The position numbers and the translations under genes are program-made. Source: a virus (lineage: Duplodnaviria > Heunggongvirae > Uroviricota > Caudoviricetes). Taken from it: a DNA stretch of 10,237 nt. The notes beneath the pieces were generated by a model, which ran no database searches, was not told the origin of the DNA, and saw nothing but the letters and a program-made list of their open reading frames with translations. Location of the stretch: positions 1 through 10,237 of the IMG/VR virus record IMGVR_UViG_2778261151_000009. One strand, written 5' to 3'. Positions 1-10,237 of this stretch are shown piece after piece. Position 1 is the stretch's first letter; the number at the start of each line of letters is the position of its first letter.

Positions 1-296
1 CGCGTTGTTTCCGGTATATCGACTTTGATGTACGGGTTAATTTGTCTGGCGACAGTGGCAAGGTCTTTATTCAGGAGGGCTTTGCATTCTGCTTCGGTAT
101 ACGTTTTACCGAGCATGATGTCTTTTCCGGTGTGTCCGTGGCATACAGTCCATACGCCAACGATATCTTTGTATGGTATGTAGCTGACACCTTCCAGACC
201 ATCGTTACCACCTGGGCCAGTGATGAGCACAGACGCTATGGCAATAGCCCCACCACCAATAGCAACTGCAACAGCCTTGCGTAATGATGGCGACAT
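1..296 (-). CDS. R: SAR endolysin (phage 21 R-like lysozyme), N-terminal ~98 codons only; gene continues beyond window start
   Basis: Absent from ORF track because truncated by the window edge. Minus-strand ATG at 296-294 overlaps the holin stop (TAATG). Own translation: [98 protein letters not shown]. It has a Gly/Ala-rich weakly hydrophobic N-terminal helix (signal-anchor-release type) followed by a lysozyme-like E-x8-D-x5-T motif, and sits directly downstream of the holin. Confidence 0.85.
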
Positions 297-511
297 TATT
301 CACCTCTCGCAGCCTTACGCTTGTCTTCTCTGATTTTGAAGTACAGATTTGTCAGATAAGTCAGGAAGCCCAGAACCAGACTCCCCAGTACACCAATCGC
401 AGCCCACTGTGACGGACTGACCTGATCAAGCCACTGTAAAAACCAGTAGCCAGCACTGCCTGCGGAGGTGCCGTAGGCAATGCCCGTTGAAATTTTGTCC
501 ATGGATTTCAT
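296..511 (-). CDS. S: Class II holin / pinholin, phage 21 S-like (71 aa) with dual-start motif M1-K-S-M4
   Basis: ORF track 296..511. Protein [71 protein letters not shown] has two TM segments and a charged C-terminus. Strong SD (GGAGGTGAGG) upstream; stop overlaps endolysin start. Confidence 0.9.
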
Positions 512-803
512 AGCCTCACCTCCGCAAATAACGGATGGCGTAGTTTTACACTGAGAAATGAAAGGGATTTGAAAAGAAAAAACCGCAAAAGCGGGCGAAA
601 CGATATATACAGTAAGGAAAGCACTCTATCCAACAAACCACTCACAGTTAATCGGAATAAAAGCAGAGTGCTTATGAATGATCGCCTGCCCGAAGGTTAG
701 TATTTCTGCACAGCAATTTTGCAAAAAAAAGCGATCATTCATAACTTAAACGTCTTTCAGTCACTCCGGGATTTCCCATCATCGCAGACTGAAAGACTCT
801 AAC

Positions 804-878
<75 letters not shown>

Positions 879-881
879 ATA

Positions 882-957
<76 letters not shown>

Positions 958-959
958 AC

Positions 960-1036
960 TGGACCGCCACCGGGGACTCGAACCTCGCACACTCAACTTA
1001 AAGGGTTGACGCTCTTTCCTGATGAGCTAGTGGCGG
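960..1036 (-). tRNA. tRNA-like gene, Lys-type anticodon UUU but atypical anticodon loop (C at position 33)
   Basis: Reverse complement CCGCCACTAGCTCATCAGGAAAGAGCGTCAACCCTTTAAGTTGAGTGTGCGAGGTTCGAGTCCCCGGTGGCGGTCCA. Perfect 7-bp acceptor stem, 4-bp D stem, 5-bp anticodon stem (TCAAC/GTTGA), loop CCTTTAA, T-loop TTCGAGT, encoded CCA. Isotype uncertain. Confidence 0.55.
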
Positions 1037-1040
1037 TTGG

Positions 1041-1113
1041 TGGCCCTTGCTGGATTTGAACCAGCGACCTGGCGATTATGAGTCGCTCGCTCTCACCACT
1101 GAGCTAAAGGGCC
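1041..1113 (-). tRNA. tRNA with CAU anticodon; resembles tRNA-Ile2 (lysidine type) more than elongator tRNA-Met
   Basis: Reverse complement GGCCCTTTAGCTCAGTGGTGAGAGCGAGCGACTCATAATCGCCAGGTCGCTGGTTCAAATCCAGCAAGGGCCACCA; anticodon loop CUCAUAA. From memory the body resembles E. coli ileX-type tRNA. Confidence 0.75.
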
Positions 1114-1215
1114 GGGCGCAGGATAATAACGTTACGAAATCAATGTTGCAAGCATTCAAAAATCACCCTTATCTCCTCCACCAGCGCATTCACCATGTCT
1201 ATCCGAGATAAGTGG

Positions 1216-1244
1216 CACAAAAAACCCGCTTGTGGGCGGGTTTT
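1216..1244 (-). terminator. tR'-like intrinsic terminator downstream of the late promoter
   Basis: Hairpin ACCCGC-ttgtgg-GCGGGT (1224-1241) with A-run on plus side (U-run in minus-strand RNA) and T-run on the other side, so potentially bidirectional. About 45-70 nt downstream of the candidate pR'. Confidence 0.6.
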
Positions 1245-1289
1245 GTTTGCTTTTGCCATCACGTAAAAAATCGGCAAAATATCAGATTT

Positions 1290-1322
1290 GCATGAATATA
1301 TGCCTTTCAATCTACTTTTGCA
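1290..1322 (-). promoter_or_regulatory. Candidate late promoter pR' (-35 TTGCAA, ~16-17 bp spacer, -10 TATATT) overlapping the Q-like gene end
   Basis: Minus-strand reading ttgcaaaagtagattgaaaggcaTATATTcatg. Position between the Q-like gene and the terminator/tRNA/lysis block matches lambdoid late-region architecture. Confidence 0.45.
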
Positions 1323-1995
1323 ACACTTTGCTTTGAAAATGCCGTCTTTTTTTTGAACGTGTTCTCATTACAAACAATAAAGCCTCACTATCCAGTCGGT
1401 GAAAAATGTGTTTCATTGCAACCCAGTGACGAGTAAATGTTTTGGACCAGTTTTTAGTTGTCACTCCCGCCAGTAATGCCAGCTCCTGGTATTCATAACC
1501 TTCCCCACCAAAAAGTTCTGCTTTTACTGCCTGCGCCGCCAGCCAGATTAATTTTTTCAGGCGTTCCTGCGTTTTCCCTGCAATTTTTCTGGTACCGGAT
1601 TGAGCATTAAATTCATTCCACGCCCACTGTGTTATCGCGATCTGATATTCCCAACAAATACTCCCGCTGTAACACCACAACAACCAGGCTTTATGATGTT
1701 CTTCAAGAGACAGAACAGCCCGCCGCCACGATGATGTCGAAAACTCAACCGGACTGACCAGAGGAATTGACGTCCCCTTCGCCAGCGATTGCTTTCCCGG
1801 GATTGGTGGATTATCCCGCGTTATCATTTTTCCAGTCACTTCATCGCGGTACCGGATTTTTTTACGCCTGTAACGCCCTGTATCGAACATGGCATTCTCT
1901 TGCCAGGCTTCAAGCTGACCTTTTGTTGCCCCACTCAAATCAGCGGTGGCGATAATGAGCTGCTCACGCACAAACTGTAAATACTGGTTATTCAT
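1312..1995 (-). CDS. Putative late-gene antiterminator Q-like protein (227 aa from ATG at 1995; family assignment by position)
   Basis: ORF track 1312..2001 (its first codon is GTG). ATG at 1995-1993 overlaps the rusA stop as ATGA. Located immediately upstream of the pR'-like promoter, tR' hairpin, tRNAs and the S/R cassette, downstream of rusA. No motif verified by search. Confidence 0.55.
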   Translation of the reverse strand: MNNQYLQFVREQLIIATADLSGATKGQLEAWQENAMFDTGRYRRKKIRYRDEVTGKMITRDNPPIPGKQSLAKGTSIPLVSPVEFSTSSWRRAVLSLEEHHKAWLLWCYSGSICWEYQIAITQWAWNEFNAQSGTRKIAGKTQERLKKLIWLAAQAVKAELFGGEGYEYQELALLAGVTTKNWSKTFTRHWVAMKHIFHRLDSEALLFVMRTRSKKRRHFQSKVLQK

Positions 1996-2351
1996 GCGCA
2001 CCCCAGTTCTGTGATTTTTATCCCCAGCCGCCCACCAGGAACGAGCTGACCGCGCACAATATTGATTTCATCAAACTGCTCGTCGTCTATAAGTAGTCCA
2101 GCATGCGTCAGCGCATCCAGCGGTGCCTTCAGGATATTGTCCAGGTCACGACGGCGCTTATCCGGTGGCTCTGCAATAATCTTTATCGCCAGCCTTCCGG
2201 ACAGGTTTAATTTCAGTCGCTGCTGGCGAACAATTAGCGCCACATCACGGCGATAACGCTCACCGGCTTTTGATACAGTCGCCAGTAGGTGTTCACCGTT
2301 GGCGGGTAAGGCAAAACAAATTCTATGCGTTCGGTCATTTATGCTTTCCAC
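1992..2351 (-). CDS. rusA: Holliday-junction resolvase RusA; N-terminal region apparently frameshifted (possible pseudogene or sequencing error)
   Basis: ORF track protein contains PDKRRRDLDNILKAPLDALTHAGLLIDDEQ and GGRLGIKITELG, matching the RusA catalytic core. The canonical N-terminal motif (MTERIEFVLPYPPTVNTYWR) is in another frame, starting at ATG 2338-2336 right after the upstream stop. Confidence 0.8.
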   Translation of the reverse strand: MESINDRTHRICFALPANGEHLLATVSKAGERYRRDVALIVRQQRLKLNLSGRLAIKIIAEPPDKRRRDLDNILKAPLDALTHAGLLIDDEQFDEINIVRGQLVPGGRLGIKITELGCA

Positions 2352-3397
2352 TTCAGAACACCCGAATTTCTCGCGTGCATTAAAAAACGAATCAGCAACA
2401 ACAACTGACTACCGTGTTTTTCTTCAAAATCTTTTACCCCGGCGTGTAGTTCGTTATGGCATTTACGACACAGCGGAATAACAAACAAATCGTCAGCCTT
2501 TGTTCCCATCCCTCCCAGTCCATGACCAATGATGTGGTGCGGATCATCTGCCTGATTGCCACACGTCATGCATTTCTGCGTTTTTACCCAGCGCGTGTAT
2601 ACAGGCATCTCTTCCCGTTGTGGTTTCTGGCGCTGGAGATACTGAGCCGGAGATTCCGGATCAACGGCAATGCTGACCACCGTCTCTTCCTGTGGTGGAT
2701 TCTGTTGCTGGTGGGCGTGAGGCAGCGGCGCAAGATTTTTTGTGCGCTGCTTCAGTATGCTGGTGGCGGTCTGCTCTCCCGGCACGATGTCGCTTTCACG
2801 GTACATTGAGCGGATTTTTTCCGCACGCAACCCCAGCGAACGACGTAATACCGCTTCCGGTAGCGCGTCCGCCACCTGATTGCGGACCGCCCACCAGGAT
2901 AATTCAGCCAGAGATAATTCACGCTCCTGCGTACCGCTTATTGCGTGACCGATGACGTCAATCATCCATGCTGACAGGTTTTGATGAGCAAGTTGCTCGA
3001 GTGATTCGGATGTCTGGTCACGCAACTGGTTGTCGCAGTGCCAGCACAACACCATTGCGCCGGTACCATAACGGTGAATGACGGTTTCGCTGTGATGATA
3101 ATCGCCGTGTGGCCACTGGCAGGATTTAATATGGCGCAACAGCCAGTCAGACAATGCACCAGCACCACCAGCAGCACGAATCACCCGTGCGTTACTGAAA
3201 AACGGCAGCAATGTTTTGTCTTCCACTAGCGGCTGGCGAACGGCAGGAACGACCCCGGACGGCAGATTACGCATGCTTTTCGGTTCCGGCTCCACCAGTA
3301 CCCGGGTATTGTGGAATACCGGCATGGATTCACGGCCTGGCTTAAGGACCACCAGCCCGAGTTCCGGAACCAGAACAGGTCGAAGTAATACCCGCAC
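2339..3397 (-). CDS. DUF968 / YdfU-like prophage protein with C-terminal HNH-like zinc-binding motif
   Basis: ORF track 352 aa; first codon is GTG overlapping the upstream stop. C-terminus CMTCGNQADDPHHIIGHGLGGMGTKADDLFVIPLCRKCHNELH = CxxC...HH...CxxCH...H. Position between a Rem-like gene and rusA matches Qin-type prophages. Confidence 0.7.
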   Translation of the reverse strand: MRVLLRPVLVPELGLVVLKPGRESMPVFHNTRVLVEPEPKSMRNLPSGVVPAVRQPLVEDKTLLPFFSNARVIRAAGGAGALSDWLLRHIKSCQWPHGDYHHSETVIHRYGTGAMVLCWHCDNQLRDQTSESLEQLAHQNLSAWMIDVIGHAISGTQERELSLAELSWWAVRNQVADALPEAVLRRSLGLRAEKIRSMYRESDIVPGEQTATSILKQRTKNLAPLPHAHQQQNPPQEETVVSIAVDPESPAQYLQRQKPQREEMPVYTRWVKTQKCMTCGNQADDPHHIIGHGLGGMGTKADDLFVIPLCRKCHNELHAGVKDFEEKHGSQLLLLIRFLMHARNSGVLKWKA

Positions 3398-3398
3398 A

Positions 3399-3677
3399 TT
3401 ACCTCCAGATCCGTTGCTGGAACGTGCAGGACGGACGCGGTGGCCGTTCGGAATAAGGGAGCCTGACGAAGATTATCCAGTGACGATAATCGAGACTGAG
3501 GGCTTTCTTAATCTCGTATCCGTGTCTGCGGTAGCGCTGAATCAGCCATTCAGCCTGTTCTTCGGTGCAGGGGTCGTGCTGATACCAGTCAGATTTGAAT
3601 GCATGAGAACGCCGCCCGTGCCTGCTGGCAGGGGCGGCAGAGTTATCCGAATTGTAAAATTTGGTATCGTGCGCCAT
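3399..3677 (-). CDS. Small conserved prophage protein (Rem-like position), ~92 aa from internal ATG
   Basis: ORF track gives 3399..3806, but codons 1-43 are translated through the hok terminator hairpin and U-tract (3745-3776). ATG at 3677-3675 is the first start downstream of that terminator. Start and identity uncertain. Confidence 0.45.
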   Translation of the reverse strand: MAHDTKFYNSDNSAAPASRHGRRSHAFKSDWYQHDPCTEEQAEWLIQRYRRHGYEIKKALSLDYRHWIIFVRLPYSERPPRPSCTFQQRIWR

Positions 3678-3744
3678 CTGTTTTCTCTGCTGGCGCAGCA
3701 GGTGCCAGTTGTTCAGGCTGACGGATGGATTGTAAACCAGAACG

Positions 3745-3776
3745 ACCAGAAAAAACAAAACCCGCCGAAGCGGGTT
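3745..3776 (-). terminator. Intrinsic terminator ending the hok transcript
   Basis: 7-bp stem AACCCGC / GCGGGTT (3759-3776) with CGAA tetraloop, followed on the minus strand by UUUGUUUUUUCU. Not U-rich on the plus side, so unidirectional. Confidence 0.6.
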
Positions 3777-3844
3777 AAGTGCGGGTGCGTTGAGGATGCC
3801 TGACACATCAGCGGTGGCGAGGGATTTCTCCCCCGCCGGGTCTC

Positions 3845-4000
3845 TTACTCCTCAGGTTCGTAAGCTGTGAAGACAGCGACCTCCGTCTGGCCGGTTCGGA
3901 TTCGTACCTCGCAGAGGTCTTTCCTCGTTACCAGTGCCGTCACTATGACGGTTAAACAGATGACGATAAGGGCGATTAACATCGCCTTTTGCTGCTTCAT
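3845..4000 (-). CDS. hok: Hok/Gef family type I toxin (51 aa)
   Basis: MKQQKAMLIALIVICLTVIVTALVTRKDLCEVRIRTGQTEVAVFTAYEPEE is a single TM helix plus the conserved Hok periplasmic tail. ORF track extends it in frame to an upstream ATG at 4057. Flanked by promoter, terminator and 5'/3' complementary elements. Confidence 0.9.
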   Translation of the reverse strand: MKQQKAMLIALIVICLTVIVTALVTRKDLCEVRIRTGQTEVAVFTAYEPEE

Positions 4001-4176
4001 AGCCTGCTTCTCCTTGCCTTTCGGCACGTAAGAGGCTAACCTACATGTGTTCAGCATGGATTGAGCCTCAGATTAATGTTAAGCGTCTTGCAGGACGCGT
4101 AATGTTAACTGGGGCTTTTCTCTATCTGCCTTTTGGTGTTCATGCCTGAGACAGATAGCCTCAAGCACCCGCAGTC

Positions 4177-4204
4177 ATTCTACTTAACTAAGATTTCCCT
4201 GCAA
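4177..4204 (-). promoter_or_regulatory. Candidate hok promoter (-35 TTGCAG, 16-bp spacer, -10 TAGAAT)
   Basis: Minus-strand reading tTTGCAGggaaatcttagttaagTAGAATgactgcGGGTGC. Predicted start falls right at the 5' element (4158-4172) that is complementary to the 3' end of the transcript. Confidence 0.4.
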
Positions 4205-4259
4205 ACCGTTTTTGTCCGGCACAGTAAATATCCAACTAAACCAATAGCGTTCGCTGTAT

Positions 4260-4439
4260 TTACCGCCAGTATTCAATGCACATGACCGCCATGAACACCC
4301 CTAAAAAAAGGGCATTTATATGTCCAAACATTAATATCAAAACATCAATTTTTTCCATATACCTTGCTGTGAAGATGATGGGCATACATGATGCGAACAA
4401 CCAGAACGCAACAAACAAAAACTGCAATGCGTTTTTCAT
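4260..4439 (-). CDS. Small hydrophobic membrane protein, possibly a lipoprotein (59 aa from ATG with strong SD)
   Basis: ORF track 4260..4478; Met14 (ATG 4439-4437) is preceded by AGGGGGAATA. Protein MKNALQFLFVAFWLFASCMPIIFTARYMEKIDVLILMFGHINALFLGVFMAVMCIEYWR has a signal-like N-terminus ending in a lipobox-like FASC and a second hydrophobic helix. Lies in an AT-rich island. Confidence 0.5.
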   Translation of the reverse strand: MKNALQFLFVAFWLFASCMPIIFTARYMEKIDVLILMFGHINALFLGVFMAVMCIEYWR

Positions 4440-4651
4440 TATTCCCCCTACAATCAATGTGCAATAACATTTAAACACACCTCAATTTGGCCGGACATAT
4501 AAATATCTAAACCAGAAAAAATCACTTACATAGCGTTACAAACTCTTTAGTCTAAATACTCATCGTAAAACATTCCCCATACTTATCAGTCCGTTCCGCG
4601 CCAGGTAGCTTATTGCCTTATCTGGCAACCTATAATCAGGTTTCCGCTTTT

Positions 4652-5074
4652 TCAGTTGGCTGGTCGTTTAACCGACATAGTTAACCCATTAATCTGGTTG
4701 CCGGATGCTGGTGGATTTTCGCGTTTTAGTTGTTCATAAAAGTGCACAGCTTTAACCAGTTCTTCTGATGTAACCGGGACTGGTGGGGCAGTGAATAAGG
4801 CCTGAATTTCATAGTTCGGCCTGTCGTTACAATCCTCTTTTTTCGGTACATATTTCCAGTCACCAACCCACAACTCCCCCTGAGAGTCCATAACACCTTT
4901 TTTCACGTAGCGATATCGCCACGCTATCGGCTCTGCTTCCAGCGATGCCCGTGCAATTTTGAATAACTCGCCCTCTACTCGCGCCATCCCTGAATTGGGG
5001 TGGCATTTCGTAATCGCTATTTTTAATTTGGCTTCTTCGATTAATTGTTCTTTTGTTAATTCAGTCATTTTCAT
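4652..5074 (-). CDS. Hypothetical phage protein (140 aa)
   Basis: ORF track; ATG start with second Met at codon 3. Upstream has AGGAGG followed by a CCGCC-TGAAAG-GGCGG hairpin. No family recognised. Confidence 0.6.
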   Translation of the reverse strand: MKMTELTKEQLIEEAKLKIAITKCHPNSGMARVEGELFKIARASLEAEPIAWRYRYVKKGVMDSQGELWVGDWKYVPKKEDCNDRPNYEIQALFTAPPVPVTSEELVKAVHFYEQLKRENPPASGNQINGLTMSVKRPAN

Positions 5075-5164
5075 TACCGCCCTTTCAGGCGGCCTCCTGA
5101 TGTTCTGAGGGTGCAGAAATCCCTCCGGTTAAGGATTAAATTTTATTTGCTGTGCTAAATTTAA

Positions 5165-5620
5165 TTATTCAGTTTTTATTCCTGCTCTCAAAACAGCCTC
5201 TGCCATTCTGATATCCGGATTTTCTGAAATCATCTTTTCCGGCGAGTCGCAATCACCACCACATTCAGTTATGCGTTCATGACCAAAACGAATTGTGGTT
5301 TTGTGCGCATTAATCATTTGTGTAAGCGCATCTGTCAATTCTGCAATGCGTTTGTCTTTAACTTCCAGCTCTTTCAGTAAAGCCAGTACGTCAGGATCGC
5401 TAACATCAACGACGGTTACGCGCGATTTCAGGTAATGCTCATCCGCAAAAGTTCGACCAGTTTTAAAATATCCATCATCCCCCTCACCTGTGCAGGCATA
5501 CACAATATGCGTTCTGGAAAATATGCGCTGTATCGACATTTCATCGCCACAAACAGGACATTCCGGCACCTGAATTGGTGAATAACGTTCACGTAATGCC
5601 TGGTAATTAGTCTTGCACAC
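5165..5620 (-). CDS. Hypothetical protein with zinc-ribbon-like Cys motifs and a coiled-coil segment (151 aa)
   Basis: ORF track; GTG start preceded by TTTTCAGGAGA. CPVCG...C and ECGGDCD motifs; LKELEVKDKRIAELTDALTQM heptad-like stretch. Overlaps the upstream gene by 14 nt. Confidence 0.6.
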   Translation of the reverse strand: MCKTNYQALRERYSPIQVPECPVCGDEMSIQRIFSRTHIVYACTGEGDDGYFKTGRTFADEHYLKSRVTVVDVSDPDVLALLKELEVKDKRIAELTDALTQMINAHKTTIRFGHERITECGGDCDSPEKMISENPDIRMAEAVLRAGIKTE

Positions 5621-5912
5621 TGGCTGTCTCCTGAAAAATCACCGCATGCCCCAGTTTCTCCGCCAGCGCCAGTTCTGCCTTAGCGCCTGCTGACCGCTGC
5701 CAGCCTTTCAGCATGTAAATCGCATCCACACAACGAATCATCGCCATGCAGATATCCATGTACTGCGGCTGTGTCAGCCCGTCCGGAAGTACTGCCGGGT
5801 TTAAGACGGTATGCCCTTCCCGTTTCAGTTCCTCTTCCGCATTGTGAAACGCCTCACGGTTGAAATTTTTATACCCGGTCATTGGACCGGCGATATAGAC
5901 TCTCACCCTCAC
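5607..5912 (-). CDS. DUF4406-like protein (nucleoside 2-deoxyribosyltransferase-like fold family), 101 aa
   Basis: N-terminus RVYIAGPMTGYKNFNREAFHNAEEELKREGHTVLNPA matches the characteristic YIAGPMTG...NF...F...G..V.NP signature. GTG start overlaps the upstream stop (GTGA); SD AGGAGG 7 nt upstream. Confidence 0.7.
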   Translation of the reverse strand: MRVRVYIAGPMTGYKNFNREAFHNAEEELKREGHTVLNPAVLPDGLTQPQYMDICMAMIRCVDAIYMLKGWQRSAGAKAELALAEKLGHAVIFQETASVQD

Positions 5913-6331
5913 GCCATCACCTCCTGAAAATTACCCTGATAAAACGACAATATGCGCTGCATAACTTCGCTCTTCCGGCACTCGCGACAGATTATGTTTA
6001 GGCGACTGTCGTAGCGACGTATTTCTCCGTCAGGTAATGACCAGATAAGGTCCGGATCAACCGCAGATGGTTTCTTCAGCTTTGCCCTTGAGAGCTTTTT
6101 ACGAGCATTTTGCCAGTCCTTACGCGCCTGTTCAGACGGGAATAACCCGTAACCAGAGTTGTATACATCGCCACTGGCAACCAGCTCTCTGGCCAGAATG
6201 CTCATCAGATATCTTGTTGCCCCAGTTTTAGCTTCCAGTTGTCGTAACGTCTCGCGCCCACTCTGGCGTACGAGTTCAAGAACCTGCCCTTTAATTTTTT
6301 CCCGCTCTTCTTGTGTAAAAACTTTTGCCAC
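5909..6331 (-). CDS. Hypothetical protein (140 aa), possible winged-helix N-terminus
   Basis: ORF track; GTG start with SD AGGAGGG 4 nt upstream. No Walker A motif, so not an obvious DnaC-like loader. Confidence 0.6.
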   Translation of the reverse strand: MAKVFTQEEREKIKGQVLELVRQSGRETLRQLEAKTGATRYLMSILARELVASGDVYNSGYGLFPSEQARKDWQNARKKLSRAKLKKPSAVDPDLIWSLPDGEIRRYDSRLNIICRECRKSEVMQRILSFYQGNFQEVMA

Positions 6332-6371
6332 AAGCCCTCCTGAAAATTACCTCATGACCAGAAATTAACAC

Positions 6372-7442
6372 TTACCCCCTGAAGCCCGGCGGAATTTCGT
6401 TATCCGGTTCAGAAATATGATTCACACAACGCTGGTTGTTCGTGCCGCTTACCGGGAGCAACCAGGGGTTCTCAAAATTCCGGTCCGGTCCAAAAAACGT
6501 CGTCGCTCGCTGAACAAATTCCGTTCCCGTTTTCCCGGTAGCCGCCAGGTATCTTGCGTAACGCCTCACGCCATCCAGCATGGCCTCTGGTGGCACCCCC
6601 TCGCGTAATCTGGCCTTCCAGGCACTGAAAGCGGATTTCTTCGGGTTTGCCCCGGCACGCAACGGGTACTCCCGCCAGACCTGTTCGAACACATCCGGAT
6701 AATCCACTCGTCCCACAGACTGCCCGGTGTTTTCCGGGACTACCCGATCGGCTTCCCGCTGAATGGCGGAATCGGCTTCAGGCTGCTGCAGTTGGTGTGA
6801 TTGCTCCGGACTTGCGGTCATCACCTGCTGCACAGCGCCCGAATCGGCTTTCAGCGCATACGCTGAATCGGCTTCCGGTGTCGTGCCTGCTGGCTGACCA
6901 GGATTGACGGTCTGAACATCCCCTGCCTGGTTCGTGGCGTTTTTTACGCCATGGACCATAGTGTTTTGATCTTCTTGATCTGTATCTTTATCTGTATCTT
7001 TATCTGTCGTGACTCGTCGTGACATGTGCGTGACATATCGTGACGCGCCGTGACAATCGCCATTTTGTTCCCGCTTTCTTTCCCTCTCTCGCTGCGCCCT
7101 CTTGCGCTCTGCAGGAGATTTTGCGGTTTGCGAAATATTGCCGTTGTCCTCTTTCAGCACCTGGCGTTTTTCCCATCCAGTGATTAAATCACCATCAAGT
7201 ACCCGCCCCTGCATCGTCTGCAAAATTGAATCAATTACCTCTTCTGTCACGTCGAGCGCACTTGCCAAATCTTCTGTCGTGACATCAATGTGACCTCGCG
7301 TGACATTTCGTGACGCGCTCACCAGGAGGTGGATATACACTGCCATCACTGTTGCAATTGGCTGCCCTGACACCCTGGCAATTGTTCGCCACTTAGGGTC
7401 ATTTGGCATGTCATGCCATAATCTGAGCCAGGCGTTAGCCAT
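6372..7442 (-). CDS. Putative replication initiator (O-like: N-terminal HTH, low-complexity linker, C-terminal domain) with iteron clusters inside the coding sequence
   Basis: ORF track 6372..7448 (GTG); ATG at 7442-7440 has SD AAGAGGTGA. Position after Cro-like and YdaT-like genes. Acidic repeat linker TTDKDTDKDTDQEDQ; basic stretch KRAQRERERKRE. Two clusters of CGTGAC direct repeats at helical-turn spacing inside the gene. Confidence 0.65.
   Translation of the reverse strand: MANAWLRLWHDMPNDPKWRTIARVSGQPIATVMAVYIHLLVSASRNVTRGHIDVTTEDLASALDVTEEVIDSILQTMQGRVLDGDLITGWEKRQVLKEDNGNISQTAKSPAERKRAQRERERKREQNGDCHGASRYVTHMSRRVTTDKDTDKDTDQEDQNTMVHGVKNATNQAGDVQTVNPGQPAGTTPEADSAYALKADSGAVQQVMTASPEQSHQLQQPEADSAIQREADRVVPENTGQSVGRVDYPDVFEQVWREYPLRAGANPKKSAFSAWKARLREGVPPEAMLDGVRRYARYLAATGKTGTEFVQRATTFFGPDRNFENPWLLPVSGTNNQRCVNHISEPDNEIPPGFRG
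7008..7054. repeat. Iteron-like cluster 1: five direct CGTGAC repeats at 10-11 bp spacing
   Basis: Copies start at 7008, 7018, 7029, 7039 and 7049, immediately preceded by a tandem 12-bp repeat ATCTGTATCTTT x2.5 (6978-7013). Confidence 0.6.
7246..7314. repeat. Iteron-like cluster 2: CGTGAC at 7278, 7299, 7309, variant TGTGAC at 7289, inverted copy GTCACG at 7246
   Basis: Same hexamer and 10-11 bp phasing as cluster 1, about 225 bp away, within the N-terminal coding part of the initiator gene. Confidence 0.55.
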
Positions 7443-7513
7443 ACTCACCTCTTTTGATACCGAATCTTTTTACTCACAAATTGCCGGAAGTGATCCGGTA
7501 TGAATATTGCGAG

Positions 7514-7939
7514 TCAATGCACAGCCACAATATTTCCTGCAGGGCCACCACGATTCATCTGGTTGAAACCAGCGATCGCCACTGCGACAAAATCATCAGC
7601 GTCTCTCACCAGTCGTTCCCGCGTCTCCACTAGTTCCCGAAAATAGGCTGAGCTATGGCTGCGCATTCGGGCCACCAGCAGAGGTGGCATTGCTTTTTCG
7701 ATAGCTGGTAACAACGCCTGAATTTTTTTAAGCGCATCAGGGGGGTCTTTCTCCACCCAGCGGAAAATTTTCTGAGTATTGCGAGCCAGGGCTTCCGGAT
7801 GGCTGTCGTCATACAGTTCCGGGAACGTCATTCCCAGCTCGAAATACGCTTTGGTAATTTTCGCAGCCGGTACTTTTTCGCCGTCCGGATGCGCCCAGGC
7901 ATTCATCGCCATGCGGATGTGTTCATGCTTGATTTTCAT
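7514..7939 (-). CDS. YdaT-like protein (position equivalent to CII in lambdoid early operons), 141 aa
   Basis: ORF track; ATG overlaps Cro-like stop as ATGA. Sits immediately downstream of the Cro-like gene. Family name from memory of Rac/CP-933P YdaT, not verified. Confidence 0.5.
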   Translation of the reverse strand: MKIKHEHIRMAMNAWAHPDGEKVPAAKITKAYFELGMTFPELYDDSHPEALARNTQKIFRWVEKDPPDALKKIQALLPAIEKAMPPLLVARMRSHSSAYFRELVETRERLVRDADDFVAVAIAGFNQMNRGGPAGNIVAVH

Positions 7940-8190
7940 GAATCAACTCCCATCAGCTTTTTCGTAGTAGTTTTATTCCTGCCAATAGTTAAAATTGCAT
8001 CGGCAGAAAATAATCCGTTTGATGCAAGAGCGATTTTTTCAGCGTAATTTGTTTCGCCGGTATATTCTGTGCGAGGCAATTTTCCGTTATCCATCCATTT
8101 ATAGATTGCTCTTTGGCTGACACCACAAACGTCGGCCACAACAGCAACGCGAACAGTTTTGATTACATCTTCAAGTGTTTTCTGGTTCAT
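7936..8190 (-). CDS. Cro-like HTH DNA-binding protein (84 aa from ATG 8190)
   Basis: ORF track 7936..8262, but the ATG at 8190-8188 has SD GAGGGTG 6 nt upstream. HTH signature VVADVCGVSQRAIYKWMDNGKLP. Divergent from the repressor gene. Confidence 0.7.
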   Translation of the reverse strand: MNQKTLEDVIKTVRVAVVADVCGVSQRAIYKWMDNGKLPRTEYTGETNYAEKIALASNGLFSADAILTIGRNKTTTKKLMGVDS

Positions 8191-8269
8191 ATCACCCTCA
8201 CAATGTGAACTTTGAGTACATGCTATAACAGAACTGACAGTACATTCAAGAGCGAATATCATTGAACTT
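8191..8269. promoter_or_regulatory. Divergent promoter/operator region between the Cro-like and repressor genes
   Basis: Repressor-side promoter: -35 CTGACA (8234-8239), 17-bp spacer, -10 TATCAT (8257-8262). Cro-side: -35 TTGAAT (plus 8244-8249), -10 TATAGC (plus 8222-8227). Two AACnnnnAGTACAT motifs at 8208-8221 and 8232-8245. Confidence 0.55.
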
Positions 8270-8689
8270 ATGGTTCATGAAGATAAAGCGCGTAAAGAGT
8301 TCGCCAGTAGGCTTGCGCTAGCCTGTGAAAACGCTGGTTATGAACAACATGGAAGGCAGGCAGAAATTGCCCGTCGAATGAAATTAACACCAAAAGCGGT
8401 TAGCAAATGGTTTAATGGCGAAACAATTCCTCGCCGGGAGAAATTAAGGGAATTAGCAACACTAATAGGAACAACACCAACCTATCTTTTGGGAGAGGAT
8501 ACAGAAGAAAGTGGACAGGTACGTTTCTATCAGGAGTTAAATCCAAGACAAAAAATCATCATTGACCTTCTGGACGAGCTCCCTGACAGTGAGACAGATG
8601 AACTTTTAAAAACTCTTGAAGAGAAAAAACAGAAGTACAATGCAATTTACGAAGAGTTAGCACGAAAGAAAAAACAAAAAGCCTCTTAA
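8270..8689 (+). CDS. CI/DicA-like XRE-family repressor lacking a peptidase domain (139 aa)
   Basis: ORF track; HTH GRQAEIARRMKLTPKAVSKWFNGETIP; C-terminal acidic/coiled segment. Divergent from Cro-like gene. No SD, with -10 placed about 7 nt before the ATG, suggesting a leaderless mRNA. Confidence 0.8.
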   Translation: MVHEDKARKEFASRLALACENAGYEQHGRQAEIARRMKLTPKAVSKWFNGETIPRREKLRELATLIGTTPTYLLGEDTEESGQVRFYQELNPRQKIIIDLLDELPDSETDELLKTLEEKKQKYNAIYEELARKKKQKAS

Positions 8690-8759
8690 ACCAGCATAAA
8701 TCCGGTAGCGCCTTCCTCCGGGTTTGTGCTTCACTTTATCCCATCTCATTTTTTTACAC

Positions 8760-8810
8760 ACAAAATGTACTATAAGTACTTTACAACAATGAACGCAAAG
8801 TACATTATAT
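8760..8810 (+). promoter_or_regulatory. Operator/promoter region upstream of the ydfA-like operon
   Basis: Near-palindrome ATGTACT-ATA-AGTACTT (8764-8780) and AACgcaaAGTACAT (8791-8804) overlap a candidate promoter (-35 TTTACA 8779-8784, -10 CATTAT about 8802-8807). Confidence 0.45.
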
Positions 8811-8986
8811 ACCTGCCACCCACCCCGCCCCACAGAATGCAGGGCAATACTTCGAGTTACCAGGCAGTGGTCAGGGGTTAAGTAGCCAGCCCGAGGCGTA
8901 AGAACATGACGGCAGGGTTCAACTTTAATAACTATGCAGCAGGTTTTTGTTCCGCTACCCCGGCGTTAAGGGGAAATGAGGTCAGC

Positions 8987-9142
8987 ATGGATACTATCGA
9001 TCTTGGCAACAACGAATCTCTGGTGTACGGCGTGTTTCCCAACCAGGACGGCACCTTCACCGCAATGACGTATACCAAAAGCAAAACGTTTAAAACCGAA
9101 TCTGGAGCGCGTCGCTGGCTGGAAAGAAATTCAGGTGGGTGA
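8987..9142 (+). CDS. ydfA: YdfA-like small protein (51 aa)
   Basis: Internal ATG of ORF track 8906..9142 with SD GAGGT 4 nt upstream. Protein MDTIDLGNNESLVYGVFPNQDGTFTAMTYTKSKTFKTESGARRWLERNSGG. Size and position after the DicA-like repressor match Qin ydfA (from memory). Confidence 0.6.
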   Translation: MDTIDLGNNESLVYGVFPNQDGTFTAMTYTKSKTFKTESGARRWLERNSGG

Positions 9143-9143
9143 T

Positions 9144-9272
9144 ATGGATTTCGACACAATCATGGAAAAGGCTTACGAAGAATACTTCGAAGGCCTTGCC
9201 GAAGGCGAAGAAGCTCTCAGCTTCAGCGAATTTAAACAGGCGCTTTCCAGTTCGGCAAAATCTAACGGCTGA
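9144..9272 (+). CDS. ydfB: YdfB-like small protein (42 aa)
   Basis: Not in ORF track (too short). ATG 9144 with SD AGGTGGG; own translation MDFDTIMEKAYEEYFEGLAEGEEALSFSEFKQALSSSAKSNG. Start 1 nt after the ydfA-like stop. Confidence 0.6.
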   Translation: MDFDTIMEKAYEEYFEGLAEGEEALSFSEFKQALSSSAKSNG

Positions 9273-9300
9273 TAAGCGAAACAGCACGCGAGGAATCAGT

Positions 9301-9411
9301 ATGCAGAAACGAGAACCCGTCATCATCGCGCCAGACTATACCGATGATGAACTTTATGAGTGGATTTTGGCGGCATCAGTTTCATTGCTGGCTGATGTCC
9401 GCCCTTTTTAA
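9301..9411 (+). CDS. YdfC-like short ORF (36 aa), uncertain; its 3' end is the DicF-like hairpin
   Basis: ATG 9301 with SD GAGGAA; own translation MQKREPVIIAPDYTDDELYEWILAASVSLLADVRPF. The coding sequence runs through the terminator hairpin, so it may be truncated or partly non-coding. Confidence 0.35.
   Translation: MQKREPVIIAPDYTDDELYEWILAASVSLLADVRPF
9357..9409 (+). ncRNA. dicF: DicF-like sRNA (processed 3' end of the ydfABC transcript) with intrinsic terminator
   Basis: GGCGGCATCAG...CTGATGTCCGCC hairpin (9369-9403) followed by TTTTT. Sequence and position after ydfC resemble E. coli DicF (from memory); 5' end not determinable here. Confidence 0.55.
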
Positions 9412-9591
9412 AGTGAATTTTGTGATGCGGTGAATGCGGCTCAGCGCACGCGGAACAGTTAAAACAGTAAGGAAAATCCCTTATTCCGGCGTTAATTATT
9501 AACTGGTTAACGTCACCTGGAGGCACCAGGCACCGCATCAACAAAGTTCACTTCGGTGATGAAAGGTAAGAGAAAATGTTGAATGTAGCTA

Positions 9592-9703
9592 TTGAAAACC
9601 AGAACGGGTGGAATTATAGTGCACCTGCACCTCATAAAACGGGTGCCGGGCGTGGAAACCCGAAATCATTCACGGCGCATAACCGCGCTCAGGCGGTTTT
9701 TTT
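9592..9703 (+). promoter_or_regulatory. Promoter-terminator unit: -35 TTGAAA (9592-9597), 17 bp, -10 TATAGT (9615-9620); terminator hairpin ACCGC-gctcag-GCGGT plus T7 (9682-9703)
   Basis: Near-consensus sigma70 elements followed about 60-75 nt later by a stem-loop and seven T. Could be a small RNA or an attenuating leader for the Rha-family gene. Confidence 0.4.
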
Positions 9704-9872
9704 ATGCGTTAAGCACAGCCACATTCGCATTATGGTGGGGCGTGCAGGGCAACCGCAAGGCTGGCCGGGTTCCGTGATGACCGGTATTTCCACCCCTGTA
9801 CGTCTCACCACCCTTATGGTCGTGGAAAACCTCGGTGGTGAGTTAATCAAATTCATCGCGGAGGCTGCCATC

Positions 9873-10237
9873 ATGGCTACTATCCTTACCCTTTCTCACC
9901 CTGACGTAACCATCGAAAATGGTCGCGCTGTCACTACGTCTGTTGCGATCGCCGAGTTCTTTGGCAAACGCCACGAACGAGTGTTGGATAAAATTCGCAA
10001 TCTGGACTGTTCAGCAAAATTCACTGAGCACAATTTTGTGTCGAGCGAATACACCGACTCAACCGGGCGCAAACTCCCAATGTACCAAATCACCAAAAAC
10101 GGCTTCGTTTTCCTGGTGATGGGCTTCACGGGCAAAAAAGCCGCCGCATTCAAAGAGGCATACATTGCTGAGTTCGACCGCATGGAGGCCGAACTGCGCC
10201 AGAATAACACCCCACCTGCTGACAAGATGATTCCGGG
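9873..10237 (+). CDS. rha: Rha-family phage regulatory protein, N-terminal part; gene continues beyond window end
   Basis: Absent from ORF track (no stop in window). ATG 9873 with SD GGAGG 8 nt upstream. Own translation MATILTLSHPDVTIENGRAVTTSVAIAEFFGKRHERVLDKIRNLDCSAKFTEHNFVSSEYTDSTGRKLPMYQITKNGFVFLVMGFTGKKAAAFKEAYIAEFDRMEAELRQ matches the pRha domain signature. Confidence 0.75.
   Translation, partial: MATILTLSHPDVTIENGRAVTTSVAIAEFFGKRHERVLDKIRNLDCSAKFTEHNFVSSEYTDSTGRKLPMYQITKNGFVFLVMGFTGKKAAAFKEAYIAEFDRMEAELRQNNTPPADKMIP

Follow-up and report, generated by a model that had tools for sequence, protein, structure and literature searches.

A tRNA-Lys(UUU) gene with C33 on an argN-type scaffold in a lambdoid Escherichia coli prophage, and the recurrence of its anticodon loop among phage tRNA-Lys genes

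A 10,237-nucleotide stretch of Caudoviricetes DNA (IMG/VR record IMGVR_UViG_2778261151_000009, positions 1 to 10,237; the whole stretch is called the window below) holds at 960–1036, on the minus strand, a gene for a tRNA with the lysine-type anticodon UUU and a cytosine at position 33. The usual base at this position, U33, is described as almost invariant in tRNAs (PMC5041475), and it supports the U-turn that is required for ribosome binding (PMC5041475, PMC13276492). The window is 99.8% identical to Escherichia coli chromosomes, and the gene is a real tRNA gene of a lambdoid E. coli prophage. By comparison of sequences, it is best described as an anticodon-shifted paralogue of argN, the tRNA-Arg(UCG) gene of Shiga-toxin (Stx) phages, and not as argN itself. 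C33 appears to be a tolerated variant and probably a selected one, because many phage tRNA-Lys of unrelated scaffold have this loop, CCUUUAA, too. As to function, we tentatively propose a working, phage-supplied Lys decoder that would be insensitive to tRNA-Lys nucleases, its anticodon arm differing from that of the host tRNA at the sites attacked by PrrC and RloC and by AriB of the PARIS system.

The gene was called by ARAGORN as tRNA-Lys(ttt) at exactly 960–1036 of the minus strand, and the Rfam tRNA model (RF00005) matched 963–1036 with 44.4 bits, above the gathering score of 29 (E = 5.6e-7 for the whole window). An earlier note, written from the letters of the window alone, had placed at these coordinates an otherwise regular cloverleaf with a Lys-type UUU anticodon and C33 in a CCUUUAA loop, had left the strand unstated and had proposed an ARAGORN run as a check. 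That run, the Rfam match and a direct reading agree with it on the coordinates and the description, and the base, when re-read, is C and not U. Read 5' to 3', the 5' half of the minus-strand sequence is CCGCCAC UA GCUC AUCAGGAAA GAGC G UCAAC CCUUUAA and the 3' half after the loop is GUUGA GUGUG CGAGG UUCGAGU CCCCG GUGGCGG U CCA. The anticodon loop occupies 998–1004 (minus strand), with C32 at 1004, C33 at 1003, U34–U36 at 1002–1000, A37 at 999 and A38 at 998. Base 33 is assigned as C because the five-base-pair anticodon stem, UCAAC/GUUGA, is perfect and fixes a seven-nucleotide loop; on the plus strand, window position 1003 reads G. The fold is that of a canonical elongator tRNA (stems of 7, 4, 5 and 5 base pairs, and a score over the gathering threshold), except that C stands for the U33 of the U-turn. 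The conserved core is in place (U8, A14, G18G19, T54-Psi55-C56 and A58 in the T-loop UUCGAGU, and an encoded CCA), and 20 of the 21 stem pairs are standard. The cloverleaf is indeed regular apart from the remaining pair, an A51·C63 mismatch in the T stem, and the discriminator base, which is U73 in place of the A73 determinant of LysRS. The other part of the LysRS identity set, the anticodon U34-U35-U36, is present, and the loop carries 36-UAA-38, the determinant of N6-threonylcarbamoyladenosine at position 37 (t6A37) in ANN-reading tRNAs (PMC13276492). PGAP annotates identical copies as tRNA-Lys.

The earlier note had raised the possibility of a pseudo-tRNA. The window allele has no broken stem, no truncation and no sub-threshold score. 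All four stems pair, and the loop is found as well in the tRNA-Lys of phage BF23 and in at least 34 distinct phage tRNA-Lys sequences. We also considered that C33-caused decay might explain the low Rfam score and rejected it: argN, which has U33, scores 43.0 bits against 44.4 for the window tRNA, while a divergent U33 relative (in locus L128) scores 53.2. Since argN with U33 scores alike, the scaffold, and not C33, is the source of the low score. A minimum-free-energy fold of the single tRNA sequence was non-cloverleaf, with z = -1.46 for that one sequence only.

The ancestry of the scaffold was traced in 217 cassettes gathered from IMG/VR by anchoring on the upstream CAU tRNA and annotated with ARAGORN. 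The window architecture, Ile2-Lys-Thr-Gly, accounts for 86 of them; Ile2-Arg(UCG)-Arg(UCU) was found in 68, Ile2-Lys-Arg(UCU) in 13, and in 29 an unrecognisable remnant stands between Ile2 and Arg(UCU). The window tRNA and argN of the Stx phages (anticodon UCG, loop CUUCGAA, U33) have a common scaffold. Like argN in the ileZ-argN-argO cassette of Stx and other lambdoid phages, the window gene is the second tRNA after a CAU tRNA, between Q and the late genes. The two agree in the acceptor stem (CCGCCA-), the D arm, U73 and the encoded CCA, and are 91% identical over the region with the same Rfam score; the T arm is identical to that of 933W-type argN, including the A51·C63 mismatch. They differ in the loop, CCUUUAA for CUUCGAA (U33C, C35U, G36U), which replaces the Arg anticodon UCG by UUU, in variable-loop positions 44 and 47, and in pairs 7-66, 27-43 and 30-40, which are swapped or improved in the window tRNA. 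They differ also in what follows: argO downstream of argN, and copies of the host Thr and Gly genes downstream of the window tRNA. Descent from the host gene lysT was ruled out by alignment, the window tRNA being unrelated to it.

Pair covariation was examined in an alignment of 43 distinct second-slot tRNAs, in which 96.2% of the cloverleaf cells are paired, compared with 29–53% in slid controls. What sets the Lys clade apart from most of the argN clade are double compensatory swaps at 7-66 (U-A to C-G), 27-43 (C-G to U-A) and 30-40 (G-C to A-U). These three are all the pair-level differences between the clades: few events on one branch, with no pair broken. U·G intermediates of the swapped pairs are present in 933W-type argN. 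The change of anticodon from UCG to UUU also produced 36-UAA-38 in the Lys clade. The remnants that fill the second slot in 29 cassettes (for example in loci L127, L133 and L134) are a separate matter. They keep the acceptor and the 5' part of the D arm (CCGCCATTAGCTTATCAGGAAGAGC...), have a foreign, longer middle (…AGACGACACGATAACAGGGTTGTTGG…) and receive no tRNA call from ARAGORN; each is a wreck or else a tRNA-like gene with an insertion.

The loop itself was sought across IMG/VR with a pattern for C33-UUU-A37A38 at the proper distance from a T arm, with position 32 free and position 39 not G, by which the family of the window tRNA is excluded. The results rest on the first 120 loci listed, and the counts are lower bounds. 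Among these matches ARAGORN called at least 43 further tRNA-Lys(UUU) genes, every one with the loop cctttaa despite the free position 32. They represent at least 34 distinct sequences; adding the window tRNA gives a set of 35, which makes 22 clusters at 80% identity and in which 32 members have a perfect five-base-pair anticodon stem. The other C33 tRNA-Lys are at most 69% identical to the window tRNA. Fourteen that were checked scored 52–70 bits with Rfam, within the range of the adjacent U33 tRNAs. Their genes usually lie in large arrays in which nearly all other tRNAs have U33, and some arrays combine C33 Lys, U33 Lys, Lys(CUU) and two Tyr tRNAs. Among phage tRNAs, C33 occurs at the percent level and is not limited to Lys: an unbiased Y33 pattern gave 106 U33 and 1 C33 among the matches listed, and base 33 of the 768 ARAGORN-called tRNAs in control loci (matches listed) was C in 23, G in 4 and A in 1.

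Some of these arrays deserve separate mention. Several C33 tRNAs stand together in loci L231 and L271 (Asn ccgttaa, Asp ccgtcaa, Glu ccttcaa and ccctcaa, Ser cccgaaa, Arg cccctaa). In L251, L262, L267 and L290 (at about 1200–2000 or the equivalent), a compact array holds two divergent Tyr(GUA), a Lys(CUU), a C33 Lys(UUU) and a U33 Lys(UUU), the last with an unusual D arm. The isoacceptors that retron Eco7/PtuAB and PrrC/PARIS attack are those of Tyr and Lys.

One C33 family, which takes in the tRNA-Lys of BF23, of T5-like phages of Salmonella, of Yersinia phiR2-01 and of others, has 119 phage records, and in 78 the identity is 99% or more. C33 is the majority allele among T5-like phage tRNA-Lys; the U33 type of T5 itself (CUGGU-CUUUUAA-ACCAU) was found in 23 records. 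The BF23 gene reads ...GCGGA-CCUUUAA-UCCGU... with A73. Its GenBank note gives the codon recognized as AAA and says that replacement of the anticodon by CUA yields an 'effective amber suppressor', a statement of the depositors that is silent on whether C33 was kept. The window tRNA and the tRNA-Lys of BF23 and most T5-like phages (Tequintavirus, Epseptimavirus) share an identical seven-nucleotide loop (C32-C33-UUU-A37-A38) and phage hosts that are E. coli or Salmonella, and each is the only C33 tRNA of its array (L287 for the BF23 type). In contrast, the scaffolds are unrelated (identity of 69% or less). The BF23 type is a normal tRNA-Lys in having G1, A73 and a T stem that is paired throughout, keeps U39-C40 in the anticodon stem (UAAUCC) and belongs to virulent phages with about 20 tRNAs; suppressor activity is cited for it in the GenBank record, whereas the window tRNA is known from sequence alone. 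We found no paper remarking on C33 in T5-like tRNA-Lys. The textbook exceptions to U33 are Candida tRNA-Ser(CAG), with G33, and the eukaryotic initiator tRNA-Met, with C33 (PMC5041475). The former resembles the window tRNA in being anticodon-shifted, with the anticodon of another amino acid. Both are, however, eukaryotic and unrelated in sequence, the Candida base is G33 and not C33, and the initiator works in the P site.

Within the lineage C33 is fixed. In the comparison with related prophages, which the earlier note had also suggested, it is present in all 107 UUU-type copies called by ARAGORN in the 217 cassettes (105 with cctttaa, 2 with tctttaa), and it is confined to this type among the 693 tRNAs of those cassettes. 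A U33 version of the window anticodon arm had 0 exact matches in 2.9 million IMG/VR contigs. We accordingly rejected a U33 ancestor or revertant of the same arm; the only Lys-type relative with U33, at 4009–4082 (minus strand) of L128, is divergent and has U38 as well (loop CUUUUAU); its T stem is paired throughout, and its 4-69 pair is compensated. Downstream of that tRNA, at 2265–3380 of the same locus, lie four tandem copies of the STnc100 small RNA (77–132 bits). Across the 86 cassettes of identical architecture, the Ile2, Lys, Thr and Gly genes have 4, 9, 13 and 12 haplotypes, respectively, and positions 33–38 of the Lys gene show no change; some damaging variants occur in each of the four genes. 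The gene is present in 798 of 5426 complete E. coli genomes (about 15%), and 279 complete genomes hold a copy that is at least 99% identical and annotated tRNA-Lys by PGAP. Among GTDB species representatives, E. coli and Shigella flexneri alone have the window anticodon arm, each with CC at positions 32–33. The family is young, being restricted to these two, and therefore the invariance of C33 taken alone is weak evidence of selection.

The proposal of a nuclease-insensitive Lys decoder derives from the comparison with the host tRNA. PrrC cuts tRNA-Lys(UUU) 3' of U33, and RloC cuts there and 3' of position 34 (PMC2610378). AriB cuts the same tRNA at U36AAUC|A41 and also cleaves tRNA-Thr(UGU); an AlphaFold 3 model of AriB places a second catalytic site opposite U16-U17 of the D-loop (PMC11464382, PMC12409363). 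At each of these places the window tRNA departs from the host tRNA-Lys. It has C33 for U33 at the 33p34 junction, U36AAGUU41 for U36AAUC|A41, and C16A17 for U16U17 in the D-loop. It is a phage-encoded isoacceptor of a nuclease-targeted host tRNA with substitutions at cleavage and recognition sites. The tRNA-Lys of T5 escapes AriB by U39A and A41C, and U39A alone abolishes cleavage (PMC11464382, PMC12409363); position 39 of the window tRNA is G. T5's tRNA-Lys(UUU), a tRNA that neutralises PARIS (PMC11464382, PMC12409363), and the window tRNA are both Lys decoders whose anticodon stem differs from the host's at the AriB site, position 39 being other than U and position 41 other than A in each. 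Unlike the window tRNA, that of T5 has U33, and resistance and rescue of infection were shown for it experimentally, whereas those of the window tRNA are predictions from sequence. That phage tRNAs escape nucleases through changes in the anticodon loop is a published idea that the window tRNA fits, although position 33 is not mentioned in it (PMC10264068).

The route that we envisage has four steps. On an argN scaffold, the anticodon changed to UUU, creating 36-UAA-38, U33 became C, and three stem pairs were swapped with full compensation, as the comparison of the two clades shows. The cassette would be co-transcribed between Q and the lysis genes, and to judge from the gene order the tRNA would be made in quantity when the late operon fires. 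It would then be matured, charged mainly with lysine by virtue of its UUU anticodon, and read AAA and AAG. The phage would in this way possess a spare Lys decoder unseen by the tRNA-Lys nucleases of the host or of rival elements. Codon supply, on the other hand, does not explain a Lys tRNA, because AAA and AAG are not enriched. With host codon frequencies as the reference, their use in the phage is host-like (33 and 14 per 1000 in the late genes of the phage PhiR47_1), while ACA, GGA, AUA and AGR are enriched in those genes.

A number of observations weigh against this proposal. Lys identity in E. coli resides in the UUU anticodon together with A73, and every substitution of A73 lowers lysylation (PMC9976931); by analogy, U73 should lower the lysylation efficiency of the window tRNA. 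The A51·C63 mismatch lies in its T stem, and C33 may cost efficiency, U33 being the base that supports the U-turn. The literature that we found assigns no role to base 33 in recognition by PrrC, RloC or AriB. The sole anticodon nuclease tested in this respect, the gamma-toxin of K. lactis, which cuts at 34/35, is unaffected by U33C (PMC2275089), and the idea of C33 as a general block to anticodon nucleases is weakened by this indifference. C33 is carried by roughly 1% of the Lys(UUU) tRNAs of phages and roughly 3% of all ARAGORN-called phage tRNAs and is not specific to Lys, and with a family limited to E. coli and Shigella among the GTDB representatives, its invariance may reflect recent common descent and not selection. 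The Thr gene of the cassette keeps a host-like AriB site and the CNG motif of P2 OLD (PMC12445682), and therefore the cassette as a whole is not an evasion kit. Of the E. coli copies, roughly half belong to variant alleles without a PGAP annotation (an example is L003 1501–1576). Two of these alleles are frequent, so the gene count of the family is understated: one, with a one-nucleotide deletion in the D stem, is carried by prophages of Shiga-toxin-producing E. coli O157, O145 and O111 and falls below the Rfam threshold, and the other carries C4U/U8C/C11U. As these two common sister alleles are damaged, constraint in the prophage state is weak, and a wreck takes the second slot in 29 of the 217 cassettes.

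The same observations lend themselves to a different account, in which the gene is a weakly constrained relic that drifted from argN in a dispensable second slot, acquired C33 by chance and hitch-hiked with the prophage module, its transcript being processed with little or no role in translation. The coincidence of U73, the A51·C63 mismatch and C33 agrees with this account, as do the damaged and unannotated alleles, the allele that fails the Rfam threshold and the cassettes with no recognisable tRNA in the slot. The score of 44.4 bits is 20–28 bits under those of the three neighbouring tRNAs (64.9–72.5 bits), and in a family of E. coli and Shigella only, one event would suffice to fix C33. Drift does not readily account for three compensated stem-pair swaps alongside the anticodon change, nor for a new anticodon that yields a complete Lys-type loop with 36-UAA-38. 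Polymorphism in the Lys gene is not above that of its Thr and Gly neighbours, with positions 33–38 unchanged in 86 cassettes, and the identical loop is found in many well-formed phage tRNA-Lys, including that of BF23, which is recorded as functional. We regard a relic as rather unlikely, although it is the main competitor.

An ordinary supplementary tRNA, functional, charged with lysine and raising the late supply of Lys, with C33 neutral or slightly deleterious and no part in evasion, seems to us unlikely. The neighbouring Ile2, Thr(UGU) and Gly(UCC) do fit the phage-enriched codons, and Thr and Gly are plain host copies with host-like anticodon arms, which gives the cassette the look of supply and not of evasion; the lack of effect of U33C on the one nuclease tested (PMC2275089) is also in keeping with such a role. 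However, the phage shows no enrichment of AAA or AAG, tRNA-Lys is encoded by six genes of the host, and a foreign scaffold was used where lysT could have been copied. The exact CCUUUAA loop on at least 22 clusters is, moreover, hard to credit as neutral at a nearly invariant position.

We think it improbable in the extreme that the identity or decoding of the tRNA is altered, that is, that an Arg-type body with a Lys anticodon leads to partial charging with Arg, or that C33 leads to frameshifting or a shifted register, with recoding of AAA/AAG or other sites in the late genes. A20, the main ArgRS determinant, and U36 are kept, U73 is tolerated by ArgRS and is not a Lys determinant (PMC9976931), and the only other well-known anticodon-shifted tRNA without U33 is Candida tRNA-Ser(CAG), with G33 (PMC5041475). 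The other major ArgRS determinant, C35, is nevertheless lost, the UUU anticodon alone confers Lys identity in several systems (PMC9976931), and the C33 tRNAs of the BF23 type have a normal Lys body with A73, by which C33 is independent of a hybrid body. Programmed frameshifting by Gly(UCC) and Lys(UUU) at the lambda slip site G GGA AAG was considered and rejected; PhiR47_1 carries the cassette and lambda-like G/T genes, and no GGGAAAG was found at its G/T junction. A more specific form, equally far-fetched in our estimate, is a natural Arg/Lys identity hybrid in which C33 tunes charging or decoding as G33 does in Candida, with late AAA/AAG read ambiguously or with altered frame maintenance. 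C33 may also be edited to U after transcription. Least credible of all is a structural mimic of the kind raised in the earlier note, a tRNA-shaped att site or a pure RNase P/RNase E processing signal: RNase P cuts any tRNA-like fold in a polycistronic transcript and tRNA genes are common integration sites, but the gene lies mid-prophage in a tightly packed tRNA array of the late operon, between Q and the holin with other tRNAs 1–2 nucleotides away, the integrase and prophage ends are elsewhere, and a processing signal needs neither a conserved anticodon loop nor an encoded CCA.

The tRNA is the second of four adjacent minus-strand tRNA genes called by ARAGORN (Ile2-Lys-Thr-Gly), all of which match the Rfam tRNA model. 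The first gene of the cassette, at 1038–1113 (minus strand; 72.5 bits) and 1 nucleotide upstream of Lys, is an ileZ-like tRNA(CAU) that ARAGORN calls Met-type and PGAP tRNA-Ile (lysidine-type Ile2). On the same strand follow, by ARAGORN, Rfam and comparison with the host, tRNA-Thr(UGU) at 882–957, a copy of the host thrU with one change (A9G), and tRNA-Gly(UCC) at 804–878, identical to the host glyT. The late antiterminator gene Q lies directly upstream of the cassette (1312–2001, minus strand; Pfam PF06323, E = 6e-91; annotated by PGAP in locus L001), and the first lysis gene downstream encodes a class II holin of the P21 S type (296–511, minus strand; PF04971, E = 1e-35). In Stx phages, ileZ-argN-argO and stx occupy this place between Q and the holin. 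A G+C-rich hairpin with flanking T/A runs, situated between Q and the tRNAs at 1221–1244, reads GCGGGTTTTTTG on the minus strand. A terminator scan listed it on the plus strand only and found no minus-strand terminator; by analogy with the organisation of lambdoid late operons, it may be the late terminator tR', read through by Q-modified polymerase. Two promoter-like sites on the minus strand are, like the hairpin, consensus matches only: TTGCAA-17-TATATT at the end of Q (1295–1323), a candidate pR', and a sigma-70-like TTGCAA-17-TATTAT 10 nucleotides upstream of the first tRNA (1123–1151). The latter lies downstream of the putative late terminator and could provide Q-independent expression of the cassette in the lysogen. 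The same cassette is found in complete, isolated temperate phages, for example PhiR47_1 (from ECOR13) and vB_EcoS-689R5. We found no paper on this prophage tRNA cassette, and for ileZ/argN/argO only unrelated papers.

The Thr gene of the cassette is fully identical to the host thrU in 61 of the 86 related cassettes. The copy keeps the host anticodon arm, with UAAUCA as the AriB site and the CUG/CAG (CNG) motif at which P2 OLD cuts (PMC12445682); judged by these motifs, it can act through dosage and would not confer resistance.

Elsewhere the window carries what is usual for a lambdoid early region (RusA, DUF968, hok/sok, Ea22-like, Ren-like, a replication protein, CII-like and a repressor). 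No defence or nuclease gene was found among the window open reading frames with Pfam, PADLOC and PHROGs. Self-immunity to a nuclease encoded nearby was rejected on this ground, the open reading frames being standard lambdoid early genes only. A sok antitoxin RNA (Rfam, 118.9 bits) at 3995–4170 (minus strand) overlaps a hokD-type toxin frame at about 3864–4019, forming a type I toxin-antitoxin module. An isrK Hfq-binding small RNA at 9627–9703 (plus strand; 67.7 bits) is directly followed by a C4 antisense RNA at 9728–9815 (plus strand; 76.3 bits), an order that P1/P7-like and Gifsy-like elements show upstream of antirepressor genes. In the other phage contigs, we observed at least 13 ochre-suppressor-like tRNA genes with the anticodon UUA (CUUUAAA, CUUUAAU, CUUUAAC; for example in L235, L233 and L241), a tmRNA-family match (74.5 bits) within a phage tRNA array (L272, 1329–1408) and a RAGATH-34 RNA (86.9 bits; L263, 8307–8404).

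Phage tRNA cassettes, nuclease-evading phage tRNAs and the annotation of this tRNA-Lys in hundreds of genomes are already known. What appear to be new are the anticodon-shifted argN paralogue, the fixation of C33 in its lineage and the spread of CCUUUAA across unrelated phage tRNA-Lys, including most T5-like phages. U33 is among the most conserved nucleotides in biology, and C33 with UUU is a recurrent state of phage tRNA-Lys and no one-off defect: it is the majority allele of T5-like phages, and it occurs in a lambdoid prophage tRNA of about 15% of E. coli genomes and in dozens of metagenomic phages. Even if evasion fails as an explanation, the assumption that tRNA genes without U33 are pseudogenes is corrected. 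tRNA-Lys(UUU) is a favourite target of bacterial anticodon nucleases, of which PrrC and RloC cut at 33p34, and our proposal offers a hypothesis of how phages without RNA repair enzymes escape them. If it is true, C33 would be a sequence signature of anti-defence tRNAs, and it would give a reason for a temperate phage to have rebuilt its Lys tRNA on the scaffold of an Arg tRNA and not to have copied the host gene.

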